Of a stretch of DNA of 64,000 nucleotides, positions 974 to 58,806 are shown piece after piece (position 1 is the first letter of the stretch; each line of letters begins with the position of its first letter). Source of the DNA: a virus (taxonomy: Duplodnaviria > Caudoviricetes); the IMG/VR virus record IMGVR_UViG_3300036770_007283. One strand, written 5' to 3'. The translations under genes were made by a program, and so were the position numbers. The notes under the pieces are model-generated. The model saw only the letters and a list, made by a program, of their open reading frames with translations, was not told the DNA's origin and did not search any database.

Positions 974-2629
974 TTAGTGTTTGTGATTTAGGCCAGTTTC
1001 ATTTGGTAAGCGATACCCCGCAACTGGTTGCCAGCCAGATTGCTTAAAAGGATCATCTGCAATAACAGCATCTGTGGTTAGAAGTAGATGCGCAATGCTA
1101 ATGGCATTTTCTAGTGCAGTTCTGGTTACCTTCTTTGGATCAATGACGCCCATTTCAATAAGGTCACCAAAATTCTCAGTAGCAGTATTATACCCATAAT
1201 CTACTGTGCCAACTTCTAGTTCACTTAAAATTTCTTGTGGATCCAAACCTGCATTAAGGATAATCTGAGCAGCAGGCGCCCGACAAGCATCAATTAAAAC
1301 CTCTGCGGCTGGATGCAAAGCGAATGGTAATGATTGACGCATTTTAATTCTAGTCTCTTCTGCAGCGTGCCAAAGAGCATGGCCACCACCAACAACATAA
1401 CCCTCATCAATGGCTGCTTTGACAGCAAAAACTGCATCTTCTACGCGGTCACCCTTCTCCCTTAGCTCTAGCTCTGTTGCATAACCCACGGTAATAACAG
1501 CAACCTTGCTACTTAGGAAACCAAGGCGATCCCTAATATCCTTATGCTCTGTATCGCCCAATGGATGCTTTAACCATTCACGATAGTGAGAAACCTTCTT
1601 ATTAACCAATCCTTCATTTTTATTTGGGCCAATAATTTTAGTTTTGTAACTTTCTACAATAACTCTATTAGCATGACCAAAATGTGAAAGATCAAAGTCG
1701 GAAAGTGGAATGCCAAAATCACCACCAACAATAGTTGACCCAGTAAGTGCAGCAAAGTCTTCCAACCATTCCTTACGGTTTTTGCCGAAGTTAGGAATTT
1801 TGATAGCACAAACATTTAATCTACCTGCTTGAAAATTGGTGGTAAAAAATCCAAGCCCTTCCTTTTTAAGATCCTTGCAAAGAAGTAGGATTTCACCCTG
1901 AGTTCCTGCGATCTTCTTCATAGCATTTTGAAAATCTGTTTCTGCGTGCGTAGTGATTTCATAATCAAAGATTAGAATTCTTACATCATTGAGTTCCCGC
2001 TTCGACTCATCCTTGTTAAGGAAGCTTTGTGAAATGTAGCCAGAGTCTAATTCAATACCATCAATAACCCGAACTGAATTAGGTACGCCTGGCATTGCCT
2101 CTGCGGTAATCAAGCCTTCCCTATTTACTGCAATATAAGCTTCTGCAATAACACGACCTAAATCAGGATCATTATTGGTAGAAATAGTTGCAATATGGTG
2201 CAGCGATTGATCATCACTTAGTGGCTTTGACATCTTGGAAAGCTCATCCAAGATAGAAGTTTTGGCCCAATCCATACCTTTTCTAAAGTTTAAAGGACTG
2301 TAGCCTGAATTCATTAGCTGTAATCCTTGCTTAAAGATAGCATGTGTTAAAACTGTTGCAGTAGTGGTTCCATCACCTGCAACTGCCGCTGTACGACCCG
2401 CGGCTTCCTTTACTAACTGACAGCCAAGCTCTTCGATGGGATCATCTAAGACCACCTCTCTGGCTACTGAAACACCATCCTTGGTAATGGTTGGCGCCCC
2501 AATCGTTCTACCAATAATTACATTCTTGCCACGAGGCCCCATAGTTACTTGAACAGTTCTGGTTAGTTTTTCAACACCAGTGAGTACTTTTTGTCTAGCG
2601 TCATTTCCATATTCTAATAGTTTTGCCAT
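974..2629 (-). CDS. groEL: GroEL-like chaperonin, copy 1
   Basis: [44 protein letters not shown]; no GGM tail. Confidence 0.95.
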   Translation of the reverse strand: MAKLLEYGNDARQKVLTGVEKLTRTVQVTMGPRGKNVIIGRTIGAPTITKDGVSVAREVVLDDPIEELGCQLVKEAAGRTAAVAGDGTTTATVLTHAIFKQGLQLMNSGYSPLNFRKGMDWAKTSILDELSKMSKPLSDDQSLHHIATISTNNDPDLGRVIAEAYIAVNREGLITAEAMPGVPNSVRVIDGIELDSGYISQSFLNKDESKRELNDVRILIFDYEITTHAETDFQNAMKKIAGTQGEILLLCKDLKKEGLGFFTTNFQAGRLNVCAIKIPNFGKNRKEWLEDFAALTGSTIVGGDFGIPLSDFDLSHFGHANRVIVESYKTKIIGPNKNEGLVNKKVSHYREWLKHPLGDTEHKDIRDRLGFLSSKVAVITVGYATELELREKGDRVEDAVFAVKAAIDEGYVVGGGHALWHAAEETRIKMRQSLPFALHPAAEVLIDACRAPAAQIILNAGLDPQEILSELEVGTVDYGYNTATENFGDLIEMGVIDPKKVTRTALENAISIAHLLLTTDAVIADDPFKQSGWQPVAGYRLPNETGLNHKH

Positions 2630-40637: not shown

Positions 40638-42191
40638 TTATGTTTTAAAAACATATAATCTTTGTCCAGCGTCCCAGATCTTGTGCAAACCTAGCTCTTT
40701 GGCATGTTCTTTTTCTGAAAGCCCCCTGTTATCCATGTTGGCACGACATTTAAGCCTATTAAAAGTAGTTTTATAATCAGTCCATTCCCAACCTTGTGTT
40801 TCTTTATCTAAGACAAAACTATGATTCAATAAAAACTTTCCCGTTCCATATCTTAAATCTACCCAATAATGTATAGAAAGATTTCCAACGAGGTTAGTGA
40901 TTCCTTTCAATAGTTTTGAAAAAGCACCAACCACATTAGTATTTATTTTGGAGCAAAACCTTTCTACTTTAATAATCTTAGATTCTTGAATTTTATAAGA
41001 CATTATAGAAATTAGCTCTTCATTTAAGAAAAGTCCAATATGCTTAGCGGGCTTATAGCCTTTAATATGGTGTTGTTCTAAGAATGATTTAGCAAGTGCA
41101 GTAGTGACTTCTTTTAAGGTTGTTTTTCTAGCTCCTATTTTGCCTTGAGAATTTCCTATAGCGTTATTGATCATAGATTTTATGATAGGCATTTTAAAGT
41201 AAATTTCATCTGCACGAAATTGAAAAAGCCTAAGATTTAGGTCTTCATATTTTTTTCTCATTACAAAATGATAATCAGCAGGTAGCTTTTCTTCTGAATG
41301 CCAATATAGCCCATCAGCATTTAAATATATAGTATCAGTAATTTTAAAATCAGGTCGATATGAAAATCCGGCAATAGGTTGCTTGTTCCAAAGTGTTAGG
41401 CCTAATGAATTTGAAACAAGGTTTTCAATATCAGAAATCTTATGCACATAATTCTGACAGAATTCTTTGAAGTCTTCTTCTGCAAACTCTTTATTAATCT
41501 GTAGCCATTTATAGATTGCCATATCAGAAATATTATATTCTTGCGACCAAAAAGCTGGTGTTTTTCCGCAAACCAACGTTATCTGTCCGTTGTTGGCTTG
41601 TGTCTCTTGGATCTTCTTTCTTATTTCTTCAGATTGAAATGGATTTAGAACACCATATCTTTCAAGAAGTGTTGCCTCAGCTTTTGCTTTAATTTCTGGA
41701 TTTTTAAGAGTGCAATCAGAGCCATATCTTTCTCTTACGGTTTCAGAAAACTTTTGAAGTATGGCTTCACTTTTTAATGGTGAATCTACACCATAATTTT
41801 TAATGATGGTTGCCATTTTTTTGTCTTTAACTTCTTGGGATTGGGATGGATTTTCTACACCATATTTAGATAGGTTTGTTTGCTTTATCTTTTCTTTAAC
41901 TTGACTATTTTGAAATTGGTTTTCTGTGCCATATTTTTGAAGGTTAGTTTGCTTCTTTTTCTCTATGGCAGTTTTACTATGTGCAGCATTAACTACGCCA
42001 TGATTTTGCAACATAGTTTTTTCTCTGGCTTCTTTAACCTTGTTCGATTCTTTTTTGAAGCCATACATTTTAACCATTTTATTAATAAAGTAGGGGCTGC
42101 ATCCTGCCAGTTGAGCTAACTCAACCCAGCTTAGATTTTCAACAATATATTTTTGATAAAGCCAATCTTTATCCAAATTTGTTTTTTTCAT
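40638..42191 (-). CDS. free-standing homing-endonuclease-like protein (KYGVENP repeats + C-terminal nuclease-like domain)
   Basis: multiple KYGVENPSQ-type repeats; YRPDF...ADGLYWH; VERFCSK...GAFSKLL. Confidence 0.7.
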   Translation of the reverse strand: MKKTNLDKDWLYQKYIVENLSWVELAQLAGCSPYFINKMVKMYGFKKESNKVKEAREKTMLQNHGVVNAAHSKTAIEKKKQTNLQKYGTENQFQNSQVKEKIKQTNLSKYGVENPSQSQEVKDKKMATIIKNYGVDSPLKSEAILQKFSETVRERYGSDCTLKNPEIKAKAEATLLERYGVLNPFQSEEIRKKIQETQANNGQITLVCGKTPAFWSQEYNISDMAIYKWLQINKEFAEEDFKEFCQNYVHKISDIENLVSNSLGLTLWNKQPIAGFSYRPDFKITDTIYLNADGLYWHSEEKLPADYHFVMRKKYEDLNLRLFQFRADEIYFKMPIIKSMINNAIGNSQGKIGARKTTLKEVTTALAKSFLEQHHIKGYKPAKHIGLFLNEELISIMSYKIQESKIIKVERFCSKINTNVVGAFSKLLKGITNLVGNLSIHYWVDLRYGTGKFLLNHSFVLDKETQGWEWTDYKTTFNRLKCRANMDNRGLSEKEHAKELGLHKIWDAGQRLYVFKT

Positions 42192-42582: not shown

Positions 42583-43257
42583 TTATTTTTTGGTGCCATA
42601 AGCATGTGATTCATTTAGGCTAGACTGGGTAATGACAATGTAGGTATCAAACTTCTGTAACTCTGCAATGGTTCTGGTATTGGTATAAGACATGCCTGAC
42701 TTAAGACCACCCACAAACCCATCATCACCGTAGAGAACTTCTTTTAAGGATCCTACGTATGGAATATGGGTAGTTACACCTTCGGAACAAGTACCTTCTT
42801 TTAGGCCGCCACGAAGATCTTTTTGTACTGATGCTGAGGCCATACCTCGATACATCTTTTTGGGAACTTCGTCAATATAAACTAAACTTGAGGGTGACTC
42901 ATCTGTTCCAGCAAAAACGCCACCACACATAACAGCATCTGCCCCACCAATAATTGACTTAACAACGTCGGATGGATAACGGATTCCACCGTCTGCAATA
43001 ATTGATGGATATTTCATGTTGGGATTATTTTTATTATAATATTTGAATTTATGCCTTGCTCTAGCGCAATCGACCACAGAGGATAAAGTCGGGATTCCAA
43101 CGGAGCTTTGGATGCGTGTTTTGCAGATTGAGTTGTGTAAAAATACACCATTTGAAGAAAATGAGTGTGAATTTTCTACTGTGATATCATAGACCATTCC
43201 TGAAAAATGGAATCTCTTAATATTCGACGGCTTGGAGAGTTTGTATTTCTTTAGCAT
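42583..43257 (-). CDS. guaB: IMP dehydrogenase/GMP reductase, C-terminal half, preceded by IntC
   Basis: 42-aa IntC then SICKTR, IIADGGIR, GADAVMCG, YRGMAS, EGV, GGLKSGMSY. Confidence 0.93.
   Translation of the reverse strand: MLKKYKLSKPSNIKRFHFSGMVYDITVENSHSFSSNGVFLHNSICKTRIQSSVGIPTLSSVVDCARARHKFKYYNKNNPNMKYPSIIADGGIRYPSDVVKSIIGGADAVMCGGVFAGTDESPSSLVYIDEVPKKMYRGMASASVQKDLRGGLKEGTCSEGVTTHIPYVGSLKEVLYGDDGFVGGLKSGMSYTNTRTIAELQKFDTYIVITQSSLNESHAYGTKK
43132..43257 (-). mobile_element. split intein C-fragment (IMPDH IntC, 42 aa)
   Basis: ...VYDITVENSHSFSSNGVFLHN|S: block F, His-Asn, Ser+1. Confidence 0.95.
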
Positions 43258-44293
43258 CTTTTAACTCCTGAATTATTTTCAGCAATACGTATGTTTTTTC
43301 ATAATCTTTAGATTCTGACTCTCTAATTCTATAAATAACAAAGTTATGTTTTTTTGCTAATTCATCTTTGTAGGCATCATTATTTTTTATTTTTAAAATT
43401 TTATCCACTGATAATATCGGATGGTTATCTTCTTCTGGGTGCCAAAAATCTCCATCAAATTCGACCAATATTTTATCAAATAAGCAGGCATCATAATAAC
43501 GGTCACCCAGTCGATATGTTCTTTTTATATTGTTTGGACCAACAAAGTATGATAACATATCAAAATATTCTGTTTCTGGTTTTGAGGCAATTGAATCTTT
43601 GAAAATATCTGAGTAATCATTTACTGCAAACTCATTAATTCTTTTTTTCAATACCCACGAAGAGATGTTTAATTGATAAAGATCAATAATTTTTTGATAT
43701 GAGGTTGTTTTTCCTTCAGACTTTATATAGTCAAGATATTTTATAACGACATCCATTGTCTCCTCAGGGACTTTTATATAGCAACCATTTTTTTCTCCAA
43801 GGTTGGAATAAACTAACTGATGCTTTTTCGCATTTGAATCTATAGTTTTCTTAGATGCTATCTTTAATTTAATCCACCAATTCTTAATGGTTCTAAAGTC
43901 ATGACCAGATATTTCTGATATCTTGTATGCGGGATACTTTGGTGATTGGTATTTTTCCCAGTAATCTTCTAGCGATTCTTTTGTTAATCCAATTTTTGTA
44001 TAATTATCCTTGAAAGTTTCTAATAATGATTCTGAAATTTGCTTCTTTCTTTCTTTTGGAACTGCACAATATCTAACGTGATCTCCTACATATTTTAGAT
44101 ATTTTCCTTTTTCAAATTTAGTTTCATTTCCACAGCCACAACCACAAGTTGGTTTTACGTCATTATGTGTATATTTTAAAACGTAGCTTTCTAAAGTTAT
44201 AGAGTGATCTTTTTTAAGATGAAATGAAAATTGAGCATATCTTCTTGAATCTTGATAATGAGAAAAATCCTTGTCACAAAGTAAGCATTTCAT
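43217..44293 (-). CDS. free-standing Vsr/DUF559-like endonuclease between the split-intein halves
   Basis: N-terminal CLLC/CGCGC; C-terminal YDAC...VEFDGDFWH...DAYKDELAKKH...RIRE; start at MKCLLC (GGAGG SD). Confidence 0.8.
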   Translation of the reverse strand: MKCLLCDKDFSHYQDSRRYAQFSFHLKKDHSITLESYVLKYTHNDVKPTCGCGCGNETKFEKGKYLKYVGDHVRYCAVPKERKKQISESLLETFKDNYTKIGLTKESLEDYWEKYQSPKYPAYKISEISGHDFRTIKNWWIKLKIASKKTIDSNAKKHQLVYSNLGEKNGCYIKVPEETMDVVIKYLDYIKSEGKTTSYQKIIDLYQLNISSWVLKKRINEFAVNDYSDIFKDSIASKPETEYFDMLSYFVGPNNIKRTYRLGDRYYDACLFDKILVEFDGDFWHPEEDNHPILSVDKILKIKNNDAYKDELAKKHNFVIYRIRESESKDYEKTYVLLKIIQELKDAKEIQTLQAVEY

Positions 44294-44357
44294 GCGACTA
44301 GCCCTCCGCATACTATGCTTTTGTATTAGCAGATTTGGCTAGAAAAATTAAAACATG

Positions 44358-45200
44358 TTATTCATCACCATGGCCCACCAACATGTGATTATCGTTAATT
44401 TCTCCTGCTGGAAGCCAAAATGCAAAATTATGAATATTTTCATCTGTAAGCTTATCAATATCCTGCACATTAACAACGTAGTATTTGTGATCTGTTGTGG
44501 TTTCTATTCCGTTGATAGAAATAACTTCTTCATTTTTAAGAGAAGTAATTATATCAGTTACAGAATTCCATTCTCCAGAGTGGGTAAGAACTACATCTCC
44601 CAACTCAATTTCTGAAATGGGAATGTCACCACGCTTCGTCAAAACGGTGGTTGTAGGCATTAAACAACCGCCTCCTATCCCTACCCGTACCGCATCGACA
44701 CCTAATTCAATCATAAATTCATAGCCATGAAAAGTAGCAATATTTCCTGCCATGATTGGTAGTCCTGGATAAGTTGCCTTTACCCAGTCTACCATTTCTT
44801 TCATTAGAATAGAGTGTCCATTAGCAACATCAATAGATACCATATGGATTGGAATTGCTGCTTCCATTAGAGTGGTGAGTCTTTTTCTTTCAACCTCTCC
44901 CACTCCGATTGCCGGCACTACCCATTGATTTTCTTGGGCGACTTTTTGACATTCTTCTACTTGACGTTGAGGATCCATAAACCTATGGATAATGCCTAGA
45001 CCTCCAAGCCTTCCTAATTCGATAGCCATATTGGATTCTGTAACAGTATCCATAGGCGAAGAAATAAAAGGAATTTTTAGCTCTAGGGGTCCAACTTTTG
45101 TAGAGGTATCTGGTTCGGAACGAGAACGAATATCGGAATAAACTGGTGGGATAAGAATATCGTCAAAAGACAAACCTTTGATTCTTTTGTGTTCAATCAT
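44358..45200 (-). CDS. guaB: IMP dehydrogenase/GMP reductase, N-terminal half (no CBS), followed by IntN
   Basis: LSFDDILI, SSPMDTVTE, GGLGIIHRF, IDVANGH, MAGNIAT, VRVGIGGG then 102-aa IntN. Confidence 0.93.
   Translation of the reverse strand: MIEHKRIKGLSFDDILIPPVYSDIRSRSEPDTSTKVGPLELKIPFISSPMDTVTESNMAIELGRLGGLGIIHRFMDPQRQVEECQKVAQENQWVVPAIGVGEVERKRLTTLMEAAIPIHMVSIDVANGHSILMKEMVDWVKATYPGLPIMAGNIATFHGYEFMIELGVDAVRVGIGGGCLMPTTTVLTKRGDIPISEIELGDVVLTHSGEWNSVTDIITSLKNEEVISINGIETTTDHKYYVVNVQDIDKLTDENIHNFAFWLPAGEINDNHMLVGHGDE
44361..44666 (-). mobile_element. split intein N-fragment (IMPDH IntN, 102 aa, Cys1)
   Basis: CLMPTTTVLT (block A), ETTTDHKY (block B), then stop. Confidence 0.95.
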
Positions 45201-45809: not shown

Positions 45810-45984
45810 GGCTGTATTCTAGAACTTCTACGTCTAGATTGGAATTGCATTGAATCCAAGAAACATCTTCTTTAGATAGATTCTTGTGAATATCAACTCT
45901 TCCACAGACCTTATTGGTGACTTTGACGGTGATATTTTTATCACTCCACTTTTTTGGTGCTTTACTATCCATGATTTCCTCCAT
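45772..45984 (-). CDS. hypothetical protein
   Basis: 70-aa ORF. Confidence 0.5.
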   Translation of the reverse strand: MEEIMDSKAPKKWSDKNITVKVTNKVCGRVDIHKNLSKEDVSWIQCNSNLDVEVLEYSLDKKRRPKTKDD

Positions 45985-46831
45985 TCAAATCCTCCAAGCT
46001 TTTAACACTAAATCCTGCGGCGTTTCTATGTCCACCGCCTCCGGGAAACTGCTTTGCAATTTCGGAAACATCTAAGCCTTCATCTGTTGATCTCAAGGAA
46101 AAGACGAATTCTTCTCCATCATAATGATACCCGGCAGAAAAAGATTCGCCAACTGCTAAATCACCCAACATTTCAGAACGAAAGAACGGTGTGTTTAAAA
46201 TAGGAACTTCAAAACCTTTGATCTTGGCACGATATGTATTTTTAATAATTGAGTTTATCAAAGTTTTGTTATATCTAAGGATTGCAGCTCCTTCGTTTAA
46301 TAATTTTGAGAAACCCTCTGGTGTTTCTATCAGGTTATTTAATTTATCCCAAGTTTCAAAGTTTTTGGGATAAGAATCTATTGCGGTTAGCAATTCTCTT
46401 GCATAAGGTAAAATGCAATTTTGTGGACCATGCAAATCACGATCCTCGATATATTGAAGTAATTTTGGTGTCTCGTCATCAGGAAAGCAATAATCCCAGG
46501 CCAAGATAGCACCGGAATGATCCATGTCAAAATGGGTAAAGCTTAGATCGCCAAGTAATTTCTGTGCAGATAAGTGGTGATCTAAAATAAGAAACTTTTT
46601 AGCAATTTCATTTATAACAATGGAGTCTTCTCGTTCCAAGGAAAAATCTACCATAATAACTTCCCGATCTCTTAAATCTTCGGGATTCAAACCTTTGAAG
46701 GGAGCAAGAATATGGGCTAATGGCTGGTAGTCTATTGTGTCACTATATTTCTTCCAAAAGGAAAAAGCCGCACCAAACCCATCAGGACATTCATCATGAT
46801 AAATTAAGATTGGCTTGTTAGTGGTTGTCAT
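45965..46831 (-). CDS. DHH/DHHA1 phosphoesterase
   Basis: YHDECPDG, VDFS, LDHH, GGGHRNAAGF. Confidence 0.9.
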   Translation of the reverse strand: MTTTNKPILIYHDECPDGFGAAFSFWKKYSDTIDYQPLAHILAPFKGLNPEDLRDREVIMVDFSLEREDSIVINEIAKKFLILDHHLSAQKLLGDLSFTHFDMDHSGAILAWDYCFPDDETPKLLQYIEDRDLHGPQNCILPYARELLTAIDSYPKNFETWDKLNNLIETPEGFSKLLNEGAAILRYNKTLINSIIKNTYRAKIKGFEVPILNTPFFRSEMLGDLAVGESFSAGYHYDGEEFVFSLRSTDEGLDVSEIAKQFPGGGGHRNAAGFSVKSLEDLNGGNHG

Positions 46832-47847
46832 ATTGTCTCCGGAGAGAATGAATATTCTATCGCTTTAACTAAATGACTTCTTTCTGATACCTCTTGTGAT
46901 ATAAAATTTGTCATTTGTTTTAAATCTTTAAAATCCTGTAAGGTTTGTTTATAGAATAACTTATAAACCCCTACTTGATCAAGTATATCACATTTACTAA
47001 TAATTAAATTAGTTGTTCCAGAAATATTAACCGCCTCAATTAAGTAATCCAAATTTAACCAGTTAACAACCCTTCTTCTCCCCGTTGTAACACCATACTC
47101 TTGGCCTAAACGACCGATTTCAGATAGAATGGGATCTTCCAACAATGACTTGGGGAACAATGGGTCTTCACCGCTCCTTGTATCATAAATTTTAGCCGCA
47201 CCATAAATATTTTTAATTTTTTGTGGTGGGAAACCTAAACTACAAGCAGCATAAGGAAGTGTATTACTAGAGGTTACATAAGGATAATTTCCTTGATCTA
47301 AGTCAAGCCAGAATCCCTGGGCACCCTCGCATAATATCCTACCTTGAAGGTCACTTTGCCACAATAAATTCTTAGAAAGAACTTCTTTGGCTAAGACACC
47401 AGTTCTTGCAGCTTTATCAGCATAAACTGGTGCAATCCCTCTTGAGGTGGTTCCTAATTTGGCAGCTAGATTTTGTTTATCTTGCTCAATATGCTTTTCT
47501 TGAATAATATGACAATTAGGATGAACCTTAACCAGCGAGATATCAAATCCATTATCTGACAGATAATCCAATTCTTTGTTAAAGGATTCTGGATGCAAAA
47601 CACAACCTGGCCCGACTAATGATTGGACGCCATAAAAAACGCCAGAGGGAACTAGGTGTGTTTTGTATTTTTTACCATTAACAAAAACTGTATGTCCCGC
47701 ATTATTTCCACCGCCCCACCTAGCCACTAATGAATAATCACCTGAGCTTGCTAGTTGGCTTGTAATTTTTCCTTTTGCTTCGTCGCCTGGGGTTTAACCC
47801 CAAGCTAAACCAACAACGATATCTACGCTGTCAATCTGCTTGGACAT
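46828..47847 (-). CDS. purA: short-type adenylosuccinate synthetase with an in-frame TAA at codon 18 (recoded or pseudogene)
   Basis: AAGGAGG SD + ATG 47847: MSKQIDSVDIVVGLAWG*TPGDEAKGK...RWGGGNNAGHT...EGAQG...GVTTGRRR, all one frame. Confidence 0.9.
47785..47805 (-). other. stop-codon hairpin inside purA
   Basis: GCTTGGGGT-TAA-ACCCCAGGC: 9-bp stem (one G.U pair) with a UAA triloop. Confidence 0.85.
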
Positions 47848-47891
47848 TAAGCACCTCCTTTATTTTAAGGGTTGTGGTTCTAGCTTTAATC

Positions 47892-49037
47892 TTATACGTA
47901 ATCTTCTTTCCAAGTAACTTCTTTTGATTCACCCTCTCCACGAGCCAACCTACCTTGGATTTCAACAAAGTTTTTTACTTCTTCAAGAACAGAGGGTGTG
48001 GTGGAATTCAAGAATGTGAAAATATAGTTTTCGTTAAAATATTCCATGCTAATTAAATCTTTAAAATGAAACAGGAAGTTATTTACAACATTAGATAATG
48101 TCTCCCTATCCATTGAAAAAATTGTCCTTCCGTAAGCATCCTCAACCTCAACTACACTTTTTGAAATTTCTAAGTCAGCTTCCTTCCCAGACTTAATCTT
48201 TTTATTCAAGTCTTCTGCTTCATAGAAAATTTGGGTAATTTCTTCGCAAGTGTTTTTGTCAAACTGTAGCTTATATCTCTTGGAATATTTAAATGCCCGT
48301 TCGGCAGCCCAAATTTTGCCAATAACAGAAGAATTTCTACGAACATTTCCAAAGGCAAGTAGCCGTTCTTGAAACAATTGTTCGAGTCCGTCCGCGAAAT
48401 AGAAGCTTCCATTATAGTACGCAGCACAACAATTTAAGATATCAAAAGTATCAAATAAAGTTTGAATATCCTTGATTTTCTTTTTAATTGCTTGGATCGG
48501 CTTGCAGAAACCATTTGTTTTTTTAGAACGAAAGGTGTTAGCCCAAGAAGTAGAATTTGAGATAGAGTGAATTGAATCTAAACCAAGAACATCCATCCTA
48601 TCCTTATAGAATGCTCCTGACTGATAAAAGGTGGGCGCACAACCATAAATTTTATGGTTCTTGGAAGGTGGGTCTACTTCATGATCACCTACCAAGAAAT
48701 AGAATGAATTGCCTGCATCCCAGATTACATTATCTTCCATAAACCAAAGATCAATATCACCAAACTTAAAAGATTCTGTTTTTTCAATTTGGGTATTTCC
48801 AGGCGTAGTAGTGTTGTTAAGAATTTCAAAAATCTTAAAATTATCAAAAGAAGCTTTGTTATCAGAATTTAGAATCTGCTCTAGCTTTTCTTTGACAGCC
48901 GGATTTTTAAGGCACATAATATCCTGATAAAGCGAAACAATAAACCCACCTGCAATAACTGGATTTAGCTTGAGGATATTTTCGGGCACAAACATTTTTA
49001 GAATTTTTTCTGCATTCTCATGCTTAACAATGTGCAT
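47892..49037 (-). CDS. nucleotidyltransferase-fold protein (polyA/CCA head-like)
   Basis: IAGGFI...GDIDLWF...FDILNCCAAY; start moved to MHIVK (GGAG SD). Confidence 0.6.
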   Translation of the reverse strand: MHIVKHENAEKILKMFVPENILKLNPVIAGGFIVSLYQDIMCLKNPAVKEKLEQILNSDNKASFDNFKIFEILNNTTTPGNTQIEKTESFKFGDIDLWFMEDNVIWDAGNSFYFLVGDHEVDPPSKNHKIYGCAPTFYQSGAFYKDRMDVLGLDSIHSISNSTSWANTFRSKKTNGFCKPIQAIKKKIKDIQTLFDTFDILNCCAAYYNGSFYFADGLEQLFQERLLAFGNVRRNSSVIGKIWAAERAFKYSKRYKLQFDKNTCEEITQIFYEAEDLNKKIKSGKEADLEISKSVVEVEDAYGRTIFSMDRETLSNVVNNFLFHFKDLISMEYFNENYIFTFLNSTTPSVLEEVKNFVEIQGRLARGEGESKEVTWKEDYV

Positions 49038-49069
49038 ATAAACTCCGGGGCATAGCTCGGCCCACAAAA

Positions 49070-56558: not shown

Positions 56559-58157
56559 TTATTTTTCTTCTTCATCACAAATTGTAACTTCTGTAGTGAG
56601 CAAAGTTCCGCTGGCAGAAGCTGCATGTTCTAAAGAAGATCTAACTACCTTAGTTGGATCTACAATTCCACGTTCCAACATATTAGAAACATATTCTAAT
56701 CTTAGGGCATCAAATCCTGCAAAAGAACCAGCTTCCAAAACTCTCCTTAGATAATCAGACCTTTCCTCTTCCAATCCTGCGTTTGATAAGATCTGATTAA
56801 AAGGTGCCTTGAGGGCGGCCTTCACCACCTCAATACCTACAACCTCTTCTGGTAGTAAGGTGTTTTTATCGAGGGTTTCTAATGCTCTTAGACAATGAAT
56901 CAAAGCACATCCACCGCCAGGAACTACGCCTTCTGATAGGGCTGATTTAACAGCATTAATAGCATCTTCTACACGGTCCTTCTTCTCACGCATTTCACTT
57001 TCTGATGTGGCACCTACCTTAAAGATAGCAACACCACCACTTAATCTTGAAATTCTGGAGCGAATTAAATCCCTTTGCTCATCAAAGATGGTGGACTCTG
57101 AGGCTCTATTTTTAAGCAACCCAATAGCCTTTTCTAGCACTTCCTTAGATTGCTTGCCATTAATAATATTTGTATTGGTGGTACTAACGACTACCTTTCT
57201 GGCGGAACCTAAGTCTGTAATTTTTGCGTCCTTTAATTCTCTACCGTCTGAATTGGTGAATAATTTAGCGCCGGTAATAATTGCCAAATCTTCCATTAAG
57301 GCTCTTCTATGATCCCCAAAGCCAGGTGCCCTAACTACACAGCATCTAATCACTCCCTTCATCTTGTTTAGAACTAGGTGTGTTAATGGCTCAGGATCAA
57401 TAGACTTAACGATCATTAAGATCTGGCGACCTTCTTGAATTACTTGATTCAAGATTTCTACCAACATATGAACATTCTTTACGTCGGCATCATAAATAAG
57501 AATATAAGGATCTTCCATTTCGCAAGTATTTCTTGCGGGGTTGGTAATAAACTCCTCGCTAATCCAGCCTTTCTCCAATTTTAAACCGTCGCTATATTGC
57601 ACTTCGGTTACATTACCGGCTGCTTCTTCTACTGAAACAATTCCATCATTTCCAACAGCGGAAACTGCTTCTGCAATCATTTTGCCCAAAGTAGGGTTAT
57701 TGTTAGCAGAGATAGTAGCTACGTGCGCTAAGGTTTCTTCATCAGAAACCTGAATGCTCATCTCTTTAAGTTTTGCGACCACTTTCTCTACGGCCAGATC
57801 AATTCCGCGCTTTACTAAGACAGGATTATTTCCATTGGCTACAAATTTAAGACCACGTCCATAGATTTCTTGTGCTAGAACTGTAGCCGTAGTAGTTCCG
57901 TCACCAGCCTCCATATTAGCGTCTGCTGCGACTGACTTAATTAATTGGGCACCCATATTTTGGATTGGGTGATCTAGATTAATATATCTTGCTACCGTTA
58001 CACCGTCTTTAGTGATTAGAGGCGGTCCCATTTTTCTTTCAATAGCTGCGTGCCTGCCTCTTGGACCCAAAGTAGCCTTAACAGCATTGGCTAAAATATC
58101 CACACCTTCTTTCATCTGATCTCTGGCGTCTGAACCAATAACAACCTGTTTTCCCAC
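56559..58157 (-). CDS. groEL: GroEL-like chaperonin, copy 2
   Basis: GTG start after AAGGAG; [39 protein letters not shown]. Confidence 0.95.
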
Positions 58158-58167
58158 TTTACACTCC

Positions 58168-58806
58168 TTATGTCTCATAAACGTTTGTATAAACCTCCTT
58201 CATTTTGTTCTGTAAGGAGGCGTTATTTAATACAGCAGCCCTCATTGGATTGGAACCGGCAAAGGGATCCGCACAAATTTCATTATTTTCCGCACCTAAT
58301 AGCAATATATCTTCCCAAATTTGGTAAGGCTTTGGTGAAGTACCTGTTGGGGAATAGTTGATGGATGGAATGGCATCTGAAATAGTAGGTTTTTTATAAT
58401 TAAAAATATTGCTTCTGGATTTAACATAAACTTTTGGATTACCCTTTGAAGCATAAACAATATACTCTGCTTGGTTTCTCCAGTGATAACCACCACCAAA
58501 ATGTTGTTTGTCCCAGATTAGAATATTTAAAAATTTAAAACCGGCACCTTCGACAGAGGCCAGGGTATTAAATAATCCATCTCGATTACAAAAGATATAA
58601 GCTCGACCACCCTCCACCGTCTTATTATACATCTTCTTGATTACATCATCAATTTTATTCCAAGTAAATCTTTTGTACATTCCATTATATCTTCCCGTAC
58701 CATTCTGTGAAGAAAATGGATAAGGTGGATCAGTAATCCAAATATCAATATTTTCTTTTAATTGATTAAACCAATCATCAATATCTAGATTGTCAACATG
58801 AATCAT
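58168..58806 (-). CDS. DNA methyltransferase (N6/N4)
   Basis: ITDPPY catalytic motif, DPFAGS SAM motif. Confidence 0.8.
   Translation of the reverse strand: MIHVDNLDIDDWFNQLKENIDIWITDPPYPFSSQNGTGRYNGMYKRFTWNKIDDVIKKMYNKTVEGGRAYIFCNRDGLFNTLASVEGAGFKFLNILIWDKQHFGGGYHWRNQAEYIVYASKGNPKVYVKSRSNIFNYKKPTISDAIPSINYSPTGTSPKPYQIWEDILLLGAENNEICADPFAGSNPMRAAVLNNASLQNKMKEVYTNVYET

Follow-up and report, generated by a model that had tools for sequence, protein, structure and literature searches.

A candidate translational bypass cassette interrupting the purA gene of jumbo phages

In Escherichia coli, low-level tRNA hopping over a stop codon between matched codons, as Weiss and colleagues are said to have described in 1987, reportedly occurs at ~1%, unprogrammed and without stimulators. 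Mitochondria of Magnusiomyces carry 'byp' elements of 27-55 nt. Efficient long-range bypassing in bacteria and phages is known essentially from one system, T4 gene 60, with homologues reported only in topoisomerase genes. Manning & Atkins (bioRxiv 10.1101/2022.08.31.505936) found the homologous cassettes exclusively in Topo2L and called the cassette unique, its features being matched codons for take-off and landing (Gly or Asp), a stop (UAG, UGA in three) or hungry codon, a take-off stem-loop with a CC-UUCG-GG tip and an AU-rich 3' gap. Cryo-electron microscopy of T4 gene 60 (PMC5462505) revealed a 12-nt A-site hairpin of three C-G pairs and a UUCG loop, stop included, which shields the stop from RF1. 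In the terminase gene of the Streptomyces phage Hau3, 10-nt inserts are bypassed at UUA, with the junction peptide identified by mass spectrometry in E. coli (PMC10732093). Here we analyze a 64,000-nucleotide stretch (the window) of the Caudoviricetes virus record IMGVR_UViG_3300036770_007283, in which purA, the gene for adenylosuccinate synthetase, is interrupted by a 12-nt insert directly after the Trp-Gly codons of the P-loop. Comparison with related phages suggests, at a probability that we put at roughly three in four, that this purA is decoded by programmed translational bypassing (ribosome hopping). In the literature searched, no paper joins translational bypassing with adenylosuccinate synthetase.

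The interruption was confirmed by direct reading of the minus strand, on which the whole locus lies, in agreement with the first-pass annotation of this DNA, which had described a purA gene broken by a 12-nt stop-in-loop hairpin between two Gly codons. Exon 1 consists of 17 codons at 47797..47847, MSKQIDSVDIVVGLAWG (...GLAWG, then GGT), beginning at an ATG (47847-47845) behind a strong Shine-Dalgarno sequence (AAGGAGGT / AAGGAGGU, 47853..47860) that is the same in all 17 aligned insert alleles described below. Its last codon, GGT at 47799-47797, is the proposed take-off codon and is followed directly by an in-frame stop, TAA at 47794..47796, which as UAA would occupy the A site at take-off. 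This stop opens a coding gap of 9 nt that would not be decoded (UAAACCCCA, the stop and then ACC CCA; 47788..47796), after which come GGC at 47785..47787, the proposed landing codon on which peptidyl-tRNA-Gly would re-pair, and directly behind it GAC at 47784-47782, where decoding is proposed to restart. Exon 2 (46828..47784) begins DEAKGK (GAC GAA GCA AAA GGA AAA), shares its frame with the ATG at 47847 and runs for 318 codons to a stop at 46828. It encodes a short-type PurA matching adenylosuccinate synthetase (Pfam PF00709, expect value (E) 4e-75), and both motifs of the family, the P-loop GDExKGK and GGNNAGH, are visible in the window translation. The nearest solved structures to exon 2 are those of true PurA (4m0g, E 8e-57); an identity as PurZ was rejected, by sequence comparison only, given E 4e-15 for 6fm1 and 2e-12 for 7vf6. 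Removal of 12 nt restores the canonical P-loop, as had been claimed: W-G-D-E-A-K-G-K results from any of three equivalent cuts, because GG flanks the insert on either side, and this is the junction of insertless genes, in which W/Y/F-G is followed directly by D-E at 149 of 149 viral and cellular purA loci. The end of exon 1 likewise corresponds to what lies ahead of the P-loop in insertless PurA, namely strand beta-1 and the Trp-Gly.

The insert lies within a take-off hairpin, GCUUGGGGU-UAA-ACCCCAGGC (47785..47805), whose arms GCUUGGGGU (47805-47797) and ACCCCAGGC (47793-47785) pair over 9 bp around a loop that is exactly UAA. This structure, too, was found as first described, with one G.U among its pairs and an energy of -15.8 kcal/mol (z-score -4.3), and none of 200 shuffled sequences folded as well. 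The take-off codon is part of the 5' arm, and the 3' arm lies in the gap. The hairpin at 47785-47805 is thus real, but it is not the full extent of the element, which reaches from 47844 to 47785 and includes a second structure over exon 1. No further UUCG take-off-like hairpins were found in the window's genome.

Inserts at the same codon boundary were sought in relatives and are carried by them, varying in length and frame and covarying in structure. From the DNA of truncated purA protein matches and a scan of IMG/VR we obtained 17 distinct alleles, the window included. With insert length defined as gap plus landing codon, the inserts measure 12 nt in the window and L015; 13 nt in L010, L011, L016, L216, L228, L385, L387 and L388; 14 nt in L009 and L012; 29 nt in L014; 30 nt in L017 and L226; 32 nt in L004; and 33 nt in L386. 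These lengths split 5, 8 and 4 modulo 3; 12 of the 17 are not divisible by three. The frame of exon 2 changes accordingly, and exon 2 is open and intact in every allele. The take-off codon is GGT in 17/17 and a stop follows it directly in 17/17 (UAA in 12, UGA in five). More variation was seen in the landing triplet, the one before GAY-GAR, which is GGT in six alleles, GGA in four, GGC in three, AGT in two and AGC in two. The claim that one tRNA reads both take-off and landing codons therefore holds for the window (GGU and GGC) and for the 9 of 17 alleles landing on GGU or GGC, and fails for the eight with GGA or AGY; all 17 triplets keep at least two of three pairs with the anticodon GCC. In the four AGY alleles the invariant Gly of the P-loop can be supplied only by the take-off codon. 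A suppressor or special tRNA was also considered, and no tRNA genes were found in the window or in the 178-kb record, which is ~52% complete.

Two cassette forms were distinguished. All short alleles have a hairpin with a 7-9 bp stem that includes GGU, closed by loops of UAA, UAAA, UAAAU, UUAAAU or UAACU and not by tetraloops, and single-nucleotide loop indels separate close relatives such as the window (12 nt) and L387 (13 nt). In four of the five long alleles the take-off codon and stop lie in a UUCG-capped stem of 8-16 bp with the motif GGU UGA CC UUCG GG UCA A..., followed by an A-rich stretch without GGN. Compensatory changes maintain this stem, which reads UUGACC/GGUCAA in L004 and L226, UUGAGC/GCUCAA in L017 and UUGACCC/GGGUUAA in L014. 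The fifth long allele, L386, has a short-type hairpin (GGGGU...ACCCC, stop in the loop) and then a long-type A-rich spacer, and so links the two forms. Further searches did not extend the set: a protein-pattern scan of metagenomes gave mostly cellular purA and no new insert alleles, and no variant with a TAG stop was found in purA, the L394 match being an uninterrupted divergent PurA-like ORF (open reading frame). In a DNA pattern scan of genome contigs, none of the matches fetched from among those listed, genomic or otherwise, lay in cellular purA, so that inserts may still occur in cellular genes.

A covarying stem-loop lies over exon 1. In the window the 7-nt element UCCAAGC (codons 2-4, 47838..47844) pairs with 47805-47799 to form the base of a 46-nt stem-loop (47799..47844) that takes in nearly all of exon 1 and ends, at the 3' base, with the take-off codon's first G. 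All alleles have such an element at or just after the start, pairing across a constant 32-nt loop with an Ala or Cys codon, UGG and G, a stretch that runs up to and into the take-off codon. The pairs are UCCAGGC/GCCUGGG in most short alleles, UCCAAGC/GCUUGGG in the window, L387, L216 and L228, UCCAUGC/GCGUGGG in L386, UCUAACA/UGUUGGG in L017, UUCAGCA/UGCUGGG in L004 and UCCGGCA/UGUUGGG in L014. The stem was derived from the first 13 alleles, where 98.9% of cells are paired, versus at most 66% in slid registers. Four alleles added after it had been proposed all fit it at 7/7 positions, L386 bringing a new U.G state. Over the 17 alleles 99.2% of cells are paired (slid registers, at most 65.5%) and three pairs change on both sides (14 cells), giving a covariation score that 0 of 500 shuffles reached. 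The A-U state is present in both cassette subgroups, 'MSKQID.VD' and 'MSKLI..AD', and the nearest relatives within each subgroup have G-C; it therefore arose at least twice or was moved by recombination. Protein coding cannot explain the pairing, since the coupling joins a nonsynonymous Arg/Lys/Met change to a synonymous Ala change and since, in alleles with a 14-codon exon 1, the 5' strand occupies the same alignment columns and lies in the untranslated region and start codon rather than codons 2-4.

Folding analyses supported this structure and set the insert alleles apart from insertless relatives. RNAalifold, given the alignment only, recovers the base stem together with an inner helix that is 87.6% paired, versus at most 54% when slid. 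The minimum free energy of the 46-nt segment is -21.8 kcal/mol in the window; its mean is -20.3 kcal/mol over the insert alleles (n=17) against -6.65 in insertless relatives (n=59; Mann-Whitney p 3e-10, uncorrected for phylogeny) and -6.0 among insertless genes of the clade that holds the inserts (n=12). The latter pair at only 1-4 of the 7 positions in the fixed register, and no insertless relative reaches 7/7 over 14 registers. The z-score for the fold of the whole region is -4.5 in the window and -4.1 in L004, compared with -0.06 in the insertless L002. In the optimum fold of the free window RNA the inner helix and take-off hairpin form and the covarying base stem does not, because it and the take-off hairpin both use GCUUGGG and are mutually exclusive; the base stem is outside the minimum-free-energy fold in the short alleles generally. 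A selected stem that is excluded from the ground state fits formation while the 3' arm is held in the ribosome. In the seven alleles that share the common fold, the 5' side of the apical loop is 26 nt upstream of the take-off codon. Wills et al. give the same figure for the T4 5' stem-loop and proposed that pairing of the exiting mRNA drives forward bypassing; the agreement is no more than suggestive. Separately, the short-allele contigs L009 (~430-470), L015 (~2830-2870), L016 (~2800-2850), L216 and L228 have an inverted repeat, CTACTAAT...ATTAGTAG, upstream of the purA Shine-Dalgarno sequence, and a second upstream motif, UUAAC(A)CCCCAAGG, that resembles the 3' arm in the gap and is complementary to CUUGGGG of exon 1. 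Both motifs are absent from the window.

Together, the 17 alleles, the frames blocked in some of them, the covarying 5' stem-loop and purifying selection support the GGU-to-GGC hop that had been suggested for the window. Under such bypassing, the ribosome would translate 17 codons and pause when UAA enters the A site, with peptidyl-tRNA-Gly on GGU. The take-off codon would then be drawn into pairing with ACC of the gap, in competition with the anticodon and release factors, and the tRNA would let go; in the long alleles a UGACC-UUCG-GGUCA hairpin would form in the A site, as in T4, and compete likewise. Sliding of the mRNA, over 12 nt in the window and 12-33 nt among relatives, would follow; on leaving the ribosome, the 3' strand of the 5' stem-loop would zip onto the waiting 5' strand, giving the movement its direction and blocking back-sliding. 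The tRNA would re-pair at the first triplet offering two or three pairs, here GGC, and decoding would resume at GAC. The predicted product reads ...VVGLAWGDEAKGK..., for which the tryptic junction peptide would be QIDSVDIVVGLAWGDEAK.

The proposed cassette resembles gene 60 in several respects. First, a Gly take-off codon at an invariant active-site Gly is followed directly by a stop. Second, the take-off codon sits within a stem-loop, which in long purA alleles has the CC-UUCG-GG tip and is followed by an AU-rich 3' gap free of GGN. Third, decoding would resume after a landing Gly codon, and a 5' stem-loop lies upstream of take-off. Lastly, 18 nt of L004 (GGUUGACCUUCGGGUCAA) are identical to a cassette in the gene for a topoisomerase II small subunit in L351, which served as a positive control. 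An IMG/VR scan for the 18-mer GGTTGASCTTCGGSTCAA matched the purA loci and this one gene-60-type cassette; its other matches in IMG/VR are without purA or topoisomerase cassette context and look unrelated. The L351 cassette (L351:6586-7164; IMGVR_UViG_3300002895_000002, 213 kb) has a 47-codon ORF ending ...SDQDLDG GGT TGA, a CC-UUCG-GG hairpin and a gap of 42 nt, in which GAG lies 6 nt upstream of the landing GGC, then IHIRGLLLAFF...; its downstream part is DNA topoisomerase II (phrog_7229, positions 48-169 of 172). The 18-nt identity may be homology or convergence, because GGU-UGA and the CC-UUCG-GG tip fix the rest by base pairing. The purA cassettes differ from gene 60 in their host gene (purA rather than Topo2L), in a gap of 9-30 nt against mostly ~47 nt, in landing triplets that can be GGA or AGY, and in a 5' stem-loop that extends to the start codon and has one strand in common with the take-off hairpin. 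In short alleles, the window's among them, the loop that holds the stop moreover measures 3-6 nt, and the 3' arm contains the landing codon or ends just before it.

Other systems share single features with the locus. The Hau3 terminase, the one precedent for short bypasses, also combines very short gaps (~10 nt) with an essential phage gene and local structure that brings the landing codon close, and its junction peptide indicates that hops of ~10 nt are feasible. It differs in its trigger, a hungry UUA codon tied to the host bldA tRNA rather than a stop, and in its sequences and gene, and no start-proximal stem-loop has been described for Hau3. Like the purA inserts, the Magnusiomyces 'byp' elements are short, mobile and non-coding, contain hairpins, are AU-rich in their 3' parts, tolerate imperfect take-off/landing matches and lack a Shine-Dalgarno sequence; unlike them, they belong to the mitochondria of eukaryotes, interrupt a gene many times over and place an unassigned codon, not a stop, in the A site. 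Unprogrammed hopping in E. coli resembles the proposed event in that a peptidyl-tRNA crosses a stop codon to re-pair a few nucleotides farther on, whereas the purA site is accompanied by a dedicated, conserved and covarying RNA structure. What appears to be new in purA is the host gene, the miniaturized gaps, the lack of a mini Shine-Dalgarno sequence and of a long nascent peptide, and the start-proximal covarying 5' stem-loop.

Several observations weigh against bypassing. A mini Shine-Dalgarno sequence (GAG, GGA, AGG or GGG, 5-7 nt 5' of the landing triplet) was found in none of the 17 purA alleles. The nascent chain of 14-17 residues is too short for the tunnel interactions essential in T4, where the nascent-peptide signal spans ~46 residues with conserved tunnel contacts. 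The eight GGA and AGY landing triplets are non-cognate to the GGU-reading tRNA. No homing endonuclease was found beside purA when Pfam and PHROGs were searched with the flanking ORFs (no MobA, GIY-YIG or VSR). In the short alleles nothing 3' of the stop folds alone in the A site to exclude release factors from UAA; lacking such a shield, the efficiency and output of bypassing may be low. Finally, most of the covariation counts are uncorrected for shared ancestry, and the base stem was itself derived from a subset of the alleles that it describes.

Of the other explanations, RNA-level excision fares best and is still unlikely. Here the gap would be cut from the transcript as a micro-intron and the ends ligated, with ordinary decoding thereafter. 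Excision would account for the free length and frame of the gap and for its structured flanks, and the non-cognate landing triplets (8/17) would be no problem for it. It leaves unexplained why a stop follows GGU in every allele, why a second RGN triplet is retained and why the hairpin has a competitor in the base stem. A search for Rfam families and ribozymes gave no match at E up to 1, and to our knowledge no self-splicing intron of 12-33 nt has been described. RNA runs holding the locus were searched for and none was found.

Conventional recoding is more doubtful still. Readthrough of UAA (12 nt, W-G-X-T-P-G-D-E) or a +1 (13 nt) or -1 (14 nt) frameshift at GGU-UAA would yield PurA with 4-5 additional residues before the P-loop. 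The frames needed are open in all 12 short alleles, and an A-site stop beside a hairpin is a classical frameshift stimulator. These three mechanisms would, however, have to replace each other among close relatives (window 12 nt, L387 13 nt, L009 14 nt): each single-nucleotide loop indel would be a switch of recoding mechanism under readthrough or frameshifting and neutral under hopping or excision. In L004 and L014 a TAA lies within the gap in the target frame, and the L386 gap has three in-frame stops, with the remaining two frames closed as well, so that no single readthrough or frameshift event can join the exons and the mechanism is blocked outright. The AGY alleles would lose their invariant Gly, none of the 149 insertless PurA loci has a residue between W-G and D-E, and UAA is normally a strong terminator. 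A change of genetic code was also considered and rejected: all three stops are in normal use (TAA 56, TGA 20 and TAG 19 in long ORFs), and the frame is not the same from allele to allele.

That the gene is dead or split is improbable in view of the selection acting on it. The insert would then be a tolerated lesion, such as a fold-back mutation or a mobile-element scar, leaving no full-length PurA or only an N-terminally truncated protein. The insert is indeed a near-inverted copy of adjacent bases, as from template switching, and gene callers give the purA insert genes only as truncated ORFs of 270-308 aa or in a misread frame (in the protein search many purA calls were shortened to this range and two read GLNTPGDEAKGK). 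The relaxed downstream selection expected of a pseudogene was not seen. Between insert alleles, the ratio of nonsynonymous to synonymous substitution rates (dN/dS) over the 318 codons of exon 2 is 0.10-0.17, which is strongly purifying, at a dS of 1.2-2.6 or saturated. The last 10 codons of exon 1 are conserved as well over the 17 alleles (pN/pS, the corresponding ratio of proportions, 0.21). The region under selection includes the P-loop, which lies 5' of any usable internal start; initiation at the nearest in-frame candidate, GTG at 47727, would delete it. A P-loop that is conserved and upstream of internal starts implies that exon 2 is entered by translation at the landing site. The insert-specific covarying structure shows that the cassette, too, is under selection. 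By these measures purA with the insert is not a pseudogene.

The insert was retained in read-derived data. Contigs from three Logan runs cross the hairpin with the insert and 0 differences at a depth of 17-29. These runs belong to one subsurface-metagenome study and may include the source sample, and their assembler differs from that of the IMG/VR record; because separately assembled contigs keep the insert, an error of the IMG/VR assembler is excluded and rare variants are still possible. In runs X1 and X2 the hairpin is crossed within one 14.7-kb contig, and in run X3 unitigs break and overlap at 47804-47833, right beside the hairpin, a pattern that either a minor variant, by branching the graph, or the palindrome itself could produce. 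We regard the comparative evidence, with variants of the insert in independent metagenomes, as the stronger argument that the insert is real. An assembly or sequencing error, or a minor insert-free subpopulation supplying the functional gene, is thus very improbable: the X3 break and the inability of contigs to show rare variants leave it some room, and the three runs from another pipeline and sixteen further alleles from unrelated JGI, ENA, Logan and IMG/VR assemblies speak against it.

The phylogeny of exon 2 suggests that the cassette moves as a unit. In a tree of 42 rows all inserts fall within one 24-row clade (99% support), interleaved with insertless genes, and the short and long forms interleave with each other: the short L015 groups with the long L004 and L226 (95% support), the long L014 with the insertless L099 (96% support) and the short L228 with the insertless L019. 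The 5' element is absent from insertless sister genes. This pattern suggests that the whole unit, from 5' element to landing codon, was gained, lost or exchanged together by recombination.

The window is part of a virus record of 177,932 bases, whose completeness is estimated at 52%, with 35% G+C and no blastn match among GenBank phages. It belongs to a jumbo phage genome encoding a DNA polymerase, an SbcC-like protein and two GroEL-like chaperonins (window 974-2629 and 56559-58178, minus strand; phrog_5725, E 1e-127 and 1e-145). The purA neighborhood is conserved between the window and L010, L017, L385 and L387, with an upstream ORF and, downstream, a DHH/DHHA1 phosphoesterase and, a few genes on, IMPDH; together these make up a purine-nucleotide module. 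The upstream ORF (window 47892-49067, minus strand) is Gad2-like (PF26128) in several relatives, its window copy having no Pfam or PHROG match, and an upstream ORF of ~190 aa also adjoins insertless purA alleles. The phosphoesterase is encoded at 45965-46831 (minus strand; phrog_4771, E 4e-67). Broken genes that carry split inteins occur in this genome, and the window's IMPDH/GMP-reductase-like gene is fractured (42583-45200, minus strand). One ORF (45200-44358) holds the IMPDH N half and the start of a Hint domain, another (43257-42583) an intein C-terminal splicing region and the IMPDH C half, and a 364-aa ORF of no clear family (44311-43217) stands between them; the arrangement resembles a natural split intein whose halves flank a free-standing gene. 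In relatives the IMPDH gene is without an intein or is a single ORF with one (L011, L017). Just downstream of the fractured gene, a 517-aa ORF (40638-42191, minus strand) matches PHROG homing-endonuclease/HNH families (phrog_3339, E 1e-60) and is the nearest such ORF to purA, 5.6 kb off.

We consider it fairly probable that the purA inserts constitute a second natural family of bypass cassettes, in jumbo phages, ranging from gene-60-like forms of 29-33 nt to a minimal 12-nt form. Such cassettes would do without a long nascent-peptide signal or a mini Shine-Dalgarno sequence, relying instead on a 5' stem-loop near the start, which closes again behind the ribosome as it slides, and would be moved or lost as a unit. 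The alleles form a natural deletion series from 33 to 12 nt, and the minimal element of ~100 nt is easy to test in reporters or purified translation. Because gene callers truncate or misread the interrupted genes, similar cassettes elsewhere have probably been missed. If bypassing is correct, 17 natural purA alleles show which features of gene 60 are dispensable (nascent peptide, mini Shine-Dalgarno sequence, exact codon match) and which recur (a Gly take-off codon that is followed by a stop and held in a stem, a 5' stem-loop, and an A-rich gap lacking G). For the phage, ribosomes that terminate at the take-off site would release a 17-residue peptide, so that the cassette would lower, and might tune, the output of PurA.

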